From: Pseudomonadota bacterium
GTDB taxonomy: Bacteria > Pseudomonadota > Gammaproteobacteria > Burkholderiales > JACQAP01
Direction of reading: 5' to 3'
Assembly: GCA_038040175.1 (NCBI GenBank)
Contig: JBBPIT010000009.1
Span: forward strand, 6,931 to 70,930
Length of the DNA: 64,000 nt
The notes under the pieces were generated by a model. It was not told the origin of the DNA. It saw nothing but the letters and a program-made list of their open reading frames with translations, and ran no database searches. Made by a program: the position numbers and the translations under genes. How positions within the stretch are numbered: the first letter of the stretch is position 1; every line of letters starts with the position of its first letter. This document shows positions 59,242 through 61,890 of the stretch, piece by piece.

Positions 59242-61890
59242 TTACTTTACCCGCATGCCCGGCTGCGCGCCATCGTCGGGCGAGAGCAGGAAAATGCCCG
59301 GCCCGTCGCCGCTGGCGGCCAGTACCATGCCCTGGGATTCCCCGAAGCGCATCTTGCGCGGCTGCAGGTTGGCGACCATCACCGTAAGCCGTCCGACCAG
59401 CTTCGCCGGGTCATATGCCGACTTGATGCCGGCGAACACCTGGCGGGTTTCGTTGCCGAGATCGAGCTGCAGTTTGAGCAGCTTGTCGGCGCCTTCCACG
59501 TGCTCGGCACTGACGATGCGCGCGACGCGCAGCTCGACTTTATTGAAATCATCGATAGTGATAAGCCCCTCTCCCTCGGGGAGAGGGGTCTGGGGTGAGG
59601 GAGACGTCGGGGTGGAGGTCATTTTGTTCACCATGTTCCATATCGACTCGAGCACCGAGTCGGTTTGCGAGAGCACATCGTTATTCCAGAACCGCAACAC
59701 TTCGATTCGAAGTGCCGCGAGCGCTTGTGTTCGGGAATCGTCGTACGAGCGTGCCGTTTGATGTTGGCCACCATCCAGTTCGATGGCGAGTTTCAGCTCG
59801 TGGCTGTAGAAGTCGAGGACGTATCGATGTCCACTGAATTCCACGGGATGTTGCCGGCGAAACTTCGCGCCGGCAAGCCTTCGATCGCGCAGCAAAAACC
59901 AGACTAGTTGCTCGGCGTCTGTTTGGACGGCGCGCAACTTGCGCGCGAATTCCAGCAGATCAGGTGGGACGGGCGGTTTTTTCTTGAAAAGGCTTTTTTT
60001 CCCCTCACCCCCCGCTCCCTCACCCCCCCGCCCCTCTCCCGGAGGTAGAGGGGAGCTGGCCGGTTGCAGGCTTTCCTTGTTGGCTTCGACCAGCGCGGTG
60101 ATCTGTTTGGGGTCGATCCTCATCATCAAATGCGAATATTCCTGAACGCGATGATTCTCCAAGAGTCTGGACGCGTCCTTCCATTCAAGATCCCCGTCCC
60201 GAATAAACTGCTCGGCTGAGGATGCAAGTGTTGGCAGTACTGGCTTCAAATAAATGGTAAGCAGCCGAAAGAGATTGATAGTGACGGTGCAGACTTCGTG
60301 AAGATCCGAAGTTTTCTGTGCGTCTTTTGCAAGTTCCCAGGGTCGATTCAGATCAAAATACTTATTTGCGAGATCGGCTAAGAACATAACTTCCCTTATC
60401 GCACGGCCGAACTCGCGCAACTCATATAGTGTGGCTATCCGTGCCGCATCAACCATTGCGACAGACAATAATCTCGCGGGGTCTATTGGTAACTCGCCTT
60501 CCGAGACTAACCTCAGAAACGCATCACGCTCGAATTCGTCAACCGACTCATCTCCAGGACTAAAGTCAAACAACCCCATCGTCCTGATCGAGTTTGAGTA
60601 CGCAGTCACTTCGGCTGAGTAGTGCAGCGAACCAATCTCGTTGTTGAACTTGCTTCTTAGAAAGGATGCAGCTCTGCTTGCGATGTTGACGTACTTGCCG
60701 ATCAGATCGCTGTTTACCCGCGCGACGAAGTCCTCGAGGTTGAGGTCGATGTCCTCCATGCTCGCGTTGAGCTTCGCCGCGTAGTAGTAGCGCAGCCACT
60801 CGGGATTCAGCCCCTGCTTGAGGTAGCTCTCGGCGGTGATGAAGGTGCCGCGGGACTTGGACATCTTCTGTCCGTCCACCGTGAGGAAGCCGTGGGCGAA
60901 CACCTTGGTCGGCGTGCGGTAGCCTGCGAATTCCAGCATTGCCGGCCAGAACAGGGCATGGAAATAGAGGATGTCCTTGCCGATGAAGTGGACCATCTCG
61001 GTATTGCCGCCCGGGCGCAGGAAGGCGTCCCTGTCGATGGTCTTGCCCGCCGCTTTCTGTTTGGCGACGTAGTTGCCGAAGCTGCCGAAGTATCCCACCG
61101 GCGCATCCAGCCAGACATAAAAGAACTTCTGGTTGTTGGTGCCCGGGATCGGAAAGCCGAAGTAGGGGGCGTCGCGGGAAATGTCCCAGTCGGCCAGCTT
61201 GTTATCGCCAGGCTCGCCCAGCCACTCTTTCATCTTGTTCGCCGCTTCCGGCTGGAGGCGGTCGCCGGTCTGGGTGAAGCGGCGCAGGAAATCCTCGCAT
61301 AGTTTGTCGGAAAGCCTGAAGAAATGGTGCTCGGAGGCCTTGCGTTCCGGCCTGGCGCCTGAAACCGCCGAGTAAGGATTGATGAGGTCGGTGGGCGAAT
61401 ATGTGGTGCCACAGACTTCGCAAGAGTCGCCGTACTGGTCCTTCGAGTGGCAGTTCGGGCACTCGCCCTTGATGTATCGGTCCGGCAGGAACATCTGCTT
61501 GACCGGGTCGTAGAACTGCTCGACCGACCGTCTGGCGATCAGGTTCTTCTTGTCCAGCTGGCGGTAGATGTCCTCGCAGAAAGCCTGGTTCTCCGGGGAA
61601 TTCGTGGTGTAGTAGTTGTCGAAGGCCACATGGAAGCCGGCGAAGTCGCGGGTGTGCTCGCCGTACACGCGGGCGATCAGTTGCTCCGGGGCGATGCCTT
61701 CCTTGTCGGCGCGCAGCATGATCGGCGTGCCGTGGGTGTCGTCGGCGCAGACGTAATAGACCTCAGTGTCGGCTTGCATTCTCTGGAAGCGCACCCAGAT
61801 ATCGGTCTGGATGTATTCCACGAGGTGGCCGAGGTGGATGCTGCCGTTGGCGTACGGCAGCGCCGAGGTGACGAGGATCCTGCGCGACAT
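59242..61890 (-). CDS. metG: Methionine--tRNA ligase carrying an in-frame DUF559 insertion (882 aa)
   Basis: [28 protein letters not shown] contains the HIGH motif. The Zn knuckle is [25 protein letters not shown] is present. The anticodon-binding domain contains [21 protein letters not shown]. The C-terminal Trbp111-like domain runs [17 protein letters not shown]...[13 protein letters not shown]. There are 166 extra codons between the last two domains. Confidence 0.95.
59563..60060 (-). mobile_element. 498-bp cassette bounded by terminal inverted repeats, encoding a DUF559 (Vsr-like endonuclease fold) domain, inserted in frame in metG
   Basis: In the sense (minus-strand) orientation, the 5' end is ccctctacctccgggagagggg-cggg-ggggtgagggag-cggggggtgagggg. 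The 3' end is ctccctcacccc-aga-cccctctccccgagggagagggg. That gives imperfect inverted repeats of about 25 nt, each with a self-complementary hairpin. The interior encodes [63 protein letters not shown]...[13 protein letters not shown]. Calling it mobile is inference. Confidence 0.7.

Follow-up and report, generated by a model that had tools for sequence, protein, structure and literature searches.

Inteins reside in frame in conserved genes and depend on the host gene for their expression, and REPIN/RAYT systems place a small enzyme gene, seemingly inherited vertically, between inverted hairpin repeats that also occur as doublets. RAYTs are HUH Y1 transposases, and we know of none that resides in frame inside a host protein. 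Rickettsia palindromic elements (RPEs; Ogata et al. 2000; PMC10969869) are in-frame palindromic DNA of ~150 bp that is tolerated in unrelated, often essential genes and encodes no enzyme (PMC10969869). Vsr-like homing endonucleases (Dassa et al. 2009, PMC2677866; I-Bth0305I, PMC3239194, PDB 3R3P), whose nuclease fold has already been described (PMC2677866, PMC3239194, PMC3424549), are encoded inside conserved housekeeping genes with a patchy distribution; they are free proteins with an extra DNA-binding region, and their genes lie in group I introns or between split-intein halves (PMC2677866, PMC3239194). Here we analyze a 64,000-nt stretch (the window) of contig JBBPIT010000009.1 from a Pseudomonadota bacterium assigned to the Burkholderiales, in which the methionyl-tRNA synthetase (MetRS) gene metG contains an in-frame insert encoding a DUF559 nuclease domain between inverted repeats. 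This insert is one copy of a widespread cassette of ~0.4-0.5 kb, consisting of a ~110-aa DUF559 open reading frame (ORF) between inverted BoxC/TMECO motifs. The cassette is of mobile origin and occupies a linker of MetRS. We consider it about 60% probable that it is a selfish or semi-domesticated nuclease cassette, with translation running through it to give an independent domain within a permissive linker.

The cassette has features in common with each of these systems. With the Vsr-like homing endonucleases it shares the catalytic fold, the position of a nuclease gene inside a conserved housekeeping gene, and the patchy distribution; it differs in its length of ~110 aa, its structured inverted repeats, and in staying in the host protein with no intron or intein around it. 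No sequence relationship to those endonucleases was detected, and the insert has no start codon of its own. Like the RPEs, it is palindromic in-frame DNA tolerated in unrelated, often essential genes, but it carries an intact and selected nuclease domain; ORF-less derivatives made of two motifs, described below, are the closer analogue of RPEs. The enzyme gene between inverted hairpin repeats recalls REPIN/RAYT, with the difference that the enzyme is a PD-(D/E)xK nuclease and each repeat is a hairpin followed by a mirror G-box. Inteins have a Hint domain and splice-junction residues, which the cassette lacks. Transposons of the insertion sequence or miniature inverted-repeat transposable element (MITE) type also have terminal inverted repeats, but no duplication of the target site was seen for the cassette, and family matches of the insert are limited to the DUF559 and MTES_1575 nucleases, with no DDE, HUH, serine, or tyrosine recombinase.

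BoxC repeats have been known since the early 1990s. Holder et al. (2015) named TMECO an "intrastrand triplex motif" (triplex motif, TM) related to the earlier BoxC structures; 23 copies were counted in E. coli K-12, five as inverted pairs, and >260 genomes carry copies (PMC4666352). That report describes formation of an intrastrand triplex by the E. coli motif in vitro (PMC4666352). TMECO was described as always intergenic, and remnants of transposases or integrases were never found near the motifs (PMC4666352). The ends of the metG cassette fit the published consensus, CCCTCNCCC-N3-6-GGGNGAGGG-N3-GGGNGAGGG, once the second spacer is relaxed to 1-6 nt. In the window this consensus is matched at 59567-59601 on the plus strand, compared with 0 of 100 shuffles, and the other end has one stem mismatch; the relaxed consensus was also found in 45 of the 87 loci fetched by that stage. 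The cassette resembles BoxC/TMECO in the consensus of its ends, in the arrangement as inverted pairs, and in a wide bacterial spread (PMC4666352). It differs from the published motifs, which are described as intergenic and have no known mobilizing enzyme, in that two motifs bracket a nuclease gene within a coding sequence and are themselves translated.

The inverted-repeat ends quoted in a first-pass annotation of this DNA, made by a model from the letters alone, are present exactly as given. On the plus strand, positions 59566-59603 read CCCCTCTCCC-TCG-GGGAGAGGGG-TCT-GGGGTGAGGGAG, the first part of which is a 10-bp palindrome, and positions 60002-60053 comprise two copies of CCCTCACCCC, then CCCG, then CCCCTCTCCC-GGA-GGTAGAGGGG, a second palindrome with one mismatch. 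The arms of the terminal inverted repeat are 30-38 nt long and 83-100% complementary. The 12-mer GGGGTGAGGGAG has only two sites in the 64 kb, one at each element end (0.28 expected, with at most one mismatch), and GGGAGAGGGG occurs three times, always within the element (0.12 expected). A hairpin had been assigned to each end: the 3' (sense) hairpin is borne out by a perfect 10-bp stem with a DNA fold z of -2.5, while the 5' hairpin has 9 of 10 positions paired and folds no better than shuffles. In a TM, a short spacer separates a pyrimidine/purine hairpin from the G-box after it, and this G-box is the mirror image of the purine arm. Hairpins are perfect in 68 of 81 cases, each of the 23 distinct pyrimidine arms has a matching purine arm, and in the examples inspected the G-box varies jointly with the purine arm as its mirror. 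Hairpin conservation and arm covariation are best read as selection on DNA or RNA structure.

Variant ends were also observed in which a second small GC hairpin lies between the main hairpin and the G-box, for example CCTTCTCCC-ACC-GGGAGAAGG-TGGCCGAAGGCCG-GATGAGGG. This architecture occurs in xanthomonads, in Legionella, and at many viral-contig loci (L031, L035, L038, L053 and the viral-contig loci L106-L141), and in Legionella bononiensis the inverted repeat is lengthened to ~115 nt. The Rfam metagenomic motif whalefall-1 matches positions 59565-59602 of the plus strand below threshold (16.7 bits against a gathering score of 37, E 0.25); it may be a related repeat, or the match may be due to chance.

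Between these ends lies a full-length DUF559 domain, as had been proposed. The match to Pfam DUF559 (PF04480)/COG2852 scores 110.7 bits against a cut-off of 20.6 and covers positions 4-108 of 109, and NF007294 matches as well. Invariant columns were taken from 93 standalone and 77 embedded DUF559 relatives; the family-invariant R, W, R, F, R, D, D, G, H, R, R and W and the near-invariant E of ELDG are all found in the window copy, D693, E704, D706, G707 and H710 among them. When the PDB was searched with phmmer at E up to 1, the sole match was 3HRL, a Neisseria "endonuclease-like protein" (E 3e-19) and the closest solved structure by sequence; 3R3P and Vsr 1CW0 were not detected. Against libraries of defense systems and phage families the insert gave weak matches only (mREase_II, E 2e-4; PHROGs, E 6e-5 or weaker). 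AlphaFold2 (AF2) models the DUF559 domain at a pLDDT of 95-97 between two linkers with pLDDT <50, in agreement with the independent domain that the first-pass annotation had suggested looking for. A Foldseek search with the domain model recovered 3HRL (TM-score 0.86), the I-Bth0305I catalytic domain 3R3P (TM-score 0.82, rmsd 2.6 A), and the Vsr-like nuclease domains of PvuRts1I and AbaSI. The full-length AF2 model was used for the insert and its linkers only, as its shallow alignment gave a poor catalytic domain. The insert is predicted to remain in mature MetRS as an independent domain. The median dN/dS of the embedded DUF559 segment is 0.09 (Nei-Gojobori, seven metG-embedded copies), compared with 0.09 for the catalytic domain and 0.05 for the C-terminal domain. 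The embedded nuclease domain has stayed intact and evolves under purifying selection.

The reading frame of the insert contains no stop codon and no ATG ahead of the DUF559 domain, as previously noted. The sole start-like codon before the domain is a TTG at insert codon 42, which lies inside the first helix and has no Shine-Dalgarno sequence. Given the lack of a start codon of its own and the continuity of the frame on both sides, the nuclease domain can be made only as part of MetRS. The element had been described as 498 nt in length, a multiple of three. That length belongs to the segment between conserved host residues; measured from repeat to repeat (59566-60053) the element is 488 nt, which is not a multiple of three. 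Between the G-box and the domain are runs of A7 and A6 (GGGGAAAAAAAGCCTTTTCAAGAAAAAACC; window positions 59972-60001, minus strand), which are potential slippage sites, and this stretch had no exact match among metagenome contigs.

A search for further copies, another of the checks proposed at the outset, was positive: numerous loci and host genes besides metG carry the repeat ends and the cassette. The 166-aa insert used as query retrieved thousands of DUF559 proteins at 50-60% identity; the translated ends, including the C-terminal PLPEGEG, recur in many standalone ORFs of 150-170 aa. When 1.84 billion cluster representatives were searched exhaustively, 18,987 matched the insert at E up to 0.001. 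The arrangement TM-DUF559-TM is present in ~55 of 80 genome loci from many phyla (terminal inverted repeats with an alignment score of >=40) and spans ~400-530 nt; such repeats also occur in 36 of the 47 loci of a second sample that was fetched by peptide patterns of the domain core only. Element boundaries coincide with the outer hairpin stems. TM-type hairpins are ~30-fold denser within 250 nt of DUF559 than in the remainder of the loci (133 in ~68 kb vs 33 in 531 kb). The same loci contain ORF-less derivatives composed of a left TM, 25-35 nt, and a right TM, ~105 nt in total where both repeats are clear (Table 1), and these resemble the inverted TMECO pairs of E. coli. In E. coli K-12 itself, the DUF559 gene ycjD (1351407-1351760), located between sapF and fabI, adjoins TMECO/BoxC copy number 9 (1351205-1351239); ycjD has a decayed repeat at its stop codon and a partial duplication of its 3' end (L087, NC_000913.3 1348500-1353500).

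Many standalone copies have an ATG 0-13 nt after the left repeat, and in several the start follows directly on the G-box, which looks like a ribosome-binding site. No stop codon precedes the right end in 26 of 36 standalone copies, and the nuclease ORF continues into the flanking DNA (L016-L081); in the 19 embedded copies the frame is uninterrupted at either end, without exception. Since the ends are open in all embedded and most standalone copies, the unit is constructed so as to tolerate read-through.

In-frame residence is not confined to MetRS. By examination of stop-to-stop ORFs, the unit was found in frame in HsdM, a YgiQ radical-SAM protein, MetH, RecG, RecO, and Mur-ligase-like proteins, and protein matches add Maf and Ham1 as hosts. 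About half of the 150 best matches to the insert are long proteins in which the domain and both linkers are internal. Restriction-modification proteins make up most of the 77 long hosts, which include 26 HsdS, 11 MmeI-type and 9 Eco57I-type proteins, with at least 20 beyond HsdS carrying DNA-methyltransferase domains (MmeI, Eco57I and others); MetRS accounts for four or five, and CobT, an aminotransferase, Maf, and LplA/B are single cases, in a set where hypervariable hosts inflate the cluster counts. Of the MetH orthologs, three are filled and ~118 empty, and the same short variable loop, enclosed by two conserved helices, holds the unit. Among P0241-P0367 a methyltransferase domain is in some cases interrupted by the cassette, and two copies were found in one protein.

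Orthologs of the window MetRS were sought among 5.8 billion proteins with the insert removed from the query, and the best 120, at 67-79% identity, were compared. DUF559 is present in ~10 of these (831-890 aa), and the remainder are 692-765 aa in length. Filled and empty alleles are found between orthologs whose catalytic and C-terminal domains are 97-99% identical. As few close orthologs are filled, and presence and absence alternate between near-identical flanks, the metG insert is polymorphic and is not a fixed clade-wide domain, the arrangement that the first-pass annotation had named as contrary to its reading. Its count of 166 extra codons describes the insert correctly, but not as a simple addition: the native linker of empty orthologs, ~26 aa (APQSHSPQRHAQHQEK.VES.TAPSF; linker DNA at locus L082), is missing from the window copy, and the cassette stands in its place. 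The net gain is therefore ~140 codons, and the absence of the insert from most close orthologs is not accompanied by the clean junction that had been anticipated. A relative, P0175 (locus L083), still has the greater part of the native linker before the cassette. Four insert-free proteins (P0122, P0126, P0144 and P0163) have a Pro/Gly-rich extra linker stretch without a nuclease; in P0122 (L084) this stretch of ~80 nt contains a C-box, a hairpin, a second hairpin, and a G-rich box, is translated as ...SPPPSTPQGGTEKSPPQGEEGVKGG..., and looks like a decayed repeat. Such a decayed repeat could be the footprint of a lost cassette or a separate insertion of a small repeat.

E. coli MetRS keeps its aminoacylation activity after removal of the C-terminal domain. 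The metG insertion precedes this domain, and for that reason the site can be regarded as permissive and the emphasis first placed on insertion into an essential gene overstates the constraint at the site, although the in-frame residence itself stands. The broader proposal of an element with terminal inverted repeats in a permissive inter-domain linker is supported by the ortholog, cassette-copy, hidden Markov model, and structure checks alike. At the 3' end of some metG relatives (among P0121, P0128, P0146, P0157 and P0229) the repeat-encoded peptide SPQTPLPKGG. is present in 2-4 tandem copies, and extra repeat copies occur at some 5' ends (L002, L003, L005 and L015), from which it follows that repeat copy number at the ends is unstable.

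The history of the cassette within metG was examined by comparing synonymous divergence for the same genome pairs. The dS of the cassette is 1.2-2.7, compared with 0.2-1.0 for the flanking domains of metG; between the window and L004 it is 1.84 for the cassette and 0.28 and 0.29 for the flanks, while between L004 and L007 the cassette (0.15) and flanks (0.16-0.29) agree. Cassette dS far above flank dS would mean that alleles have been exchanged rather than plainly inherited. A neighbor-joining tree of 115 DUF559 cores groups the metG copies in a single clade, drawn from metagenome-assembled genomes of Burkholderiales and Betaproteobacteria and from the isolate Ferriphaselus sp. R-1; two metG copies, P0013 (Methylospira mobilis) and P0064, fall outside it. 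The divergence and tree data indicate that the metG copies are an old metG-resident lineage whose alleles have been swapped among metG backgrounds, not a recent arrival, and that at least two further independent colonizations of the same linker have occurred.

How such a cassette could persist in a host protein may be outlined as follows. The TM ends are stop-free in the frame used, and the Pro/Gly/Glu-rich segments they encode are predicted to be disordered, which would let the nuclease fold independently while MetRS remains functional. The cassette would be a selfish or REPIN/RAYT-like semi-domesticated element whose nuclease recognizes the structured TM ends in the form of a hairpin, cruciform, or triplex. 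A cut at these ends, followed by host repair and recombination, would copy the cassette between alleles in a homing-like replacement of the linker. The same cut-and-repair route might occasionally carry the cassette to new sites, and copies would survive where a permissive loop or linker received them in frame. We infer from this arrangement both an action of the nuclease on the TM ends and a role for it in driving mobility. By analogy, the history of the cassette resembles the slow, largely vertical REPIN/RAYT-type systems more than an active insertion sequence.

A broader and more tentative proposal, to which we give somewhat less than even odds, is that the BoxC/triplex-motif repeats have their missing protein partners in the DUF559 nucleases, the two together forming autonomous elements of ~400-530 bp that spread or persist via structure-specific cleavage of their ends. 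These elements would leave behind MITE-like derivatives of two TMs, and they would lead an intein-like life without splicing, the nuclease being an extra translated domain. Their survival inside genes would be due to stop-free ends that encode flexible linkers. Autonomous elements of this size would be smaller than any insertion sequence known to us.

Several observations weigh against the reading of a selfish or semi-domesticated nuclease cassette. There is no other TM within the 64-kb window, and a clean empty/filled junction was not found in metG, where the linker is replaced and is itself variable. No direct repeats indicative of a target-site duplication flank the ~55 elements. Neither TM specificity nor any biochemical activity of a DUF559 protein was found in the literature searched. 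Recent transposition was not seen with one genome per species: similar elements are orthologs of one another whose divergence is comparable to that of the flanking DNA, and all pairs of similar elements share flanks except those with flanks cut by contig ends. The cassette lineage of the window was found in metG only; of two exact-pattern scans of metagenomes, the first returned nothing and the second only two metG-embedded relatives. Relatives are not enriched on plasmids (41 of 72,556 records) or on viral contigs (59 loci, identity at most 48%). In addition, long persistence under purifying selection fits a role beneficial to the host equally well.

This last point leads to the only serious rival, in which a single mobile arrival was domesticated and now benefits the host, for example as an enzyme that processes TM hairpins or triplexes or as a nucleic-acid-binding module of MetRS; metG would be merely the place where the gene resides, and the repeats would be relics or regulatory structures. 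The single metG clade, which spans MetRS proteins down to 57% identity and includes Ferriphaselus sp. R-1, is as expected under domestication, and so is a cassette dN/dS of ~0.09, as low as that of the catalytic domain. The apparently vertical inheritance of standalone copies at orthologous sites and the failure to detect recent transposition also agree with it. It accounts poorly for a cassette that only ~10% of close orthologs have and that is present or absent between near-identical flanks, and for the exchange of alleles that the dS values imply. Compensatory changes keep the hairpins paired even where they encode only a linker, and the same TM-DUF559-TM unit recurs in many unrelated proteins, neither of which would be expected of one domesticated domain. 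On balance we regard domestication as unlikely, though worth serious attention.

The remaining alternatives fare worse. An old insertion, or an assembly or annotation artifact, could be a passive relic without function for element or host, and an insertion before a domain that is dispensable in E. coli MetRS could be nearly neutral; we find this improbable in view of the purifying selection on the domain and its complete set of invariant residues, the arrangement shared by independent assemblies and an isolate genome, and the frame kept across both ends in every embedded copy. A programmed inversion switch, in which the repeats serve as recombination sites and a flip truncates MetRS before its C-terminal domain to give phase variation, would draw on the 30-38-nt inverted repeats that flank the segment. 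A survey that predicted programmed inversions from inverted repeats also found "DUF559 domain-containing protein" 14-fold enriched (odds ratio 14) among its targets (PMC9881135), probably because TM inverted repeats bracket these genes, so that the repeats themselves account for the enrichment. Every metG copy fetched or listed is in one orientation and in frame, the opposite strand of the insert has stops in every frame and ORFs of at most 80 aa, and no recombinase gene adjoins metG, and we consider a switch very improbable. An intein- or intron-like element, removed from protein or mRNA to leave a MetRS of normal size, is the least credible of all: the placement in frame in a conserved housekeeping gene is that of an intein and hairpins at both ends could in principle join RNA ends, but Pfam detects no Hint/intein domain, in keeping with the lack of a splicing domain noted in the first reading, the insert starts with ASSPL and ends with GEGL followed by I, with no His-Asn and no Cys/Ser/Thr at +1, Rfam gave sub-threshold matches only and no intron family, and the nuclease ORF fills nearly all of the 488 nt.

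If the reading of a nuclease cassette is correct, three known things are joined at this locus: DUF559, an abundant nuclease family of unknown function; the unexplained BoxC/TM repeats; and in-frame foreign DNA in essential proteins. No paper linking DUF559 to BoxC/TM repeats was found in the literature searched, which did not cover subscription journals, and as far as found, the composite unit of nuclease and TM, its multi-phylum distribution, and its translated residence without splicing machinery are new. Should the nuclease act on the repeats, it would provide a testable mechanism for the origin and movement of BoxC/TM, define a class of very small elements, mobile or semi-domesticated, and imply that a selfish gene can inhabit a host protein with no need of splicing. 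How a long-known repeat family arose and what a large DUF does would become questions open to direct testing. The cassette also explains odd "fusion" annotations, such as "MetRS beta subunit" or "type I restriction enzyme M protein" for lone DUF559 ORFs, and likewise Pro/Gly/Glu-rich tails in annotated proteins. Finally, it marks natural permissive insertion sites in MetRS, MetH, RecG, RecO, Maf, and restriction-modification proteins.

Table 1. Features of metG and its cassette in the window, and ORF-less TM pairs at other loci (coordinates of the latter are those of the locus named).
Feature	Position	Strand	Description
metG ORF	59242..61890	-	882 aa + stop; MetRS with in-frame cassette; NF001100
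MetRS catalytic domain, aa 5-407	60670..61878	-	Pfam tRNA-synt_1g, E 1.4e-142; 87-98% identity to close orthologs
Anticodon-binding helical domain, aa ~410-590	60121..60663	-	Pfam Anticodon_3 at aa 486-573; hypervariable
Conserved host segment adjoining cassette, upstream side	60061..60120	-	Kept in filled and empty orthologs
5' (sense) terminal repeat	60002..60053	-	CCCCTCTACC-TCC-GGGAGAGGGG hairpin, then two GGGGTGAGGG boxes; translated
DUF559/Vsr-like PD-(D/E)xK nuclease domain, aa 646-754	59629..59955	-	Pfam PF04480, E 4.3e-32
Candidate catalytic residues	D693 59812-59814; E704 59779-59781; D706 59773-59775; H710 59761-59763	-	
3' (sense) terminal repeat	59566..59603	-	CTCCCTCACCCC-AGA-CCCCTCTCCC-CGA-GGGAGAGGGG; translated
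C-terminal Trbp111-like tRNA-binding domain, aa 787-879	59254..59532	-	Pfam tRNA_bind, E 6.6e-27; TIGR00399
ORF-less TM pairs	L042 (8.4 kb) 1263-1366, 5569-5673, 6651-6755		
ORF-less TM pairs	L050 8179-8291; L044 7354-7450; L079 4217-4283; L078 77-129		

The metG ORF is of the length first reported, and its catalytic, anticodon-binding, and C-terminal domains are present and colinear as had been stated (Table 1). The whole protein is assigned to metG by the NCBIfam equivalog NF001100 at 891.7 bits against a cut-off of 587. An identical MetRS protein is present on an independent assembly with unchanged synteny, apbC-metG-acylphosphatase-dnaE, and this gene order is common to filled and empty contigs. 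Short "MetRS beta subunit" proteins combining DUF559 and tRNA_bind had suggested a split metG; this was rejected, as the one traced to DNA, P0003, is a partial protein at a contig edge and its metG frame is continuous. The tRNA-binding domain is 91-98% identical to that of close orthologs and is modeled by AF2 at a pLDDT of ~85-92. The size excess over E. coli MetG is real, but only part of it is the insert, ~60 of the extra residues falling in the anticodon-binding region. Across 25 orthologs the anticodon-binding domain has a median identity of 40%, compared with ~91-92% in the catalytic and C-terminal domains, and it is variable in length and saturated in dS independently of the presence of the cassette. 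Its allele classes are reshuffled among backgrounds, as in the pairs P0121/P0136, P0126/P0138, and P0155/P0157.

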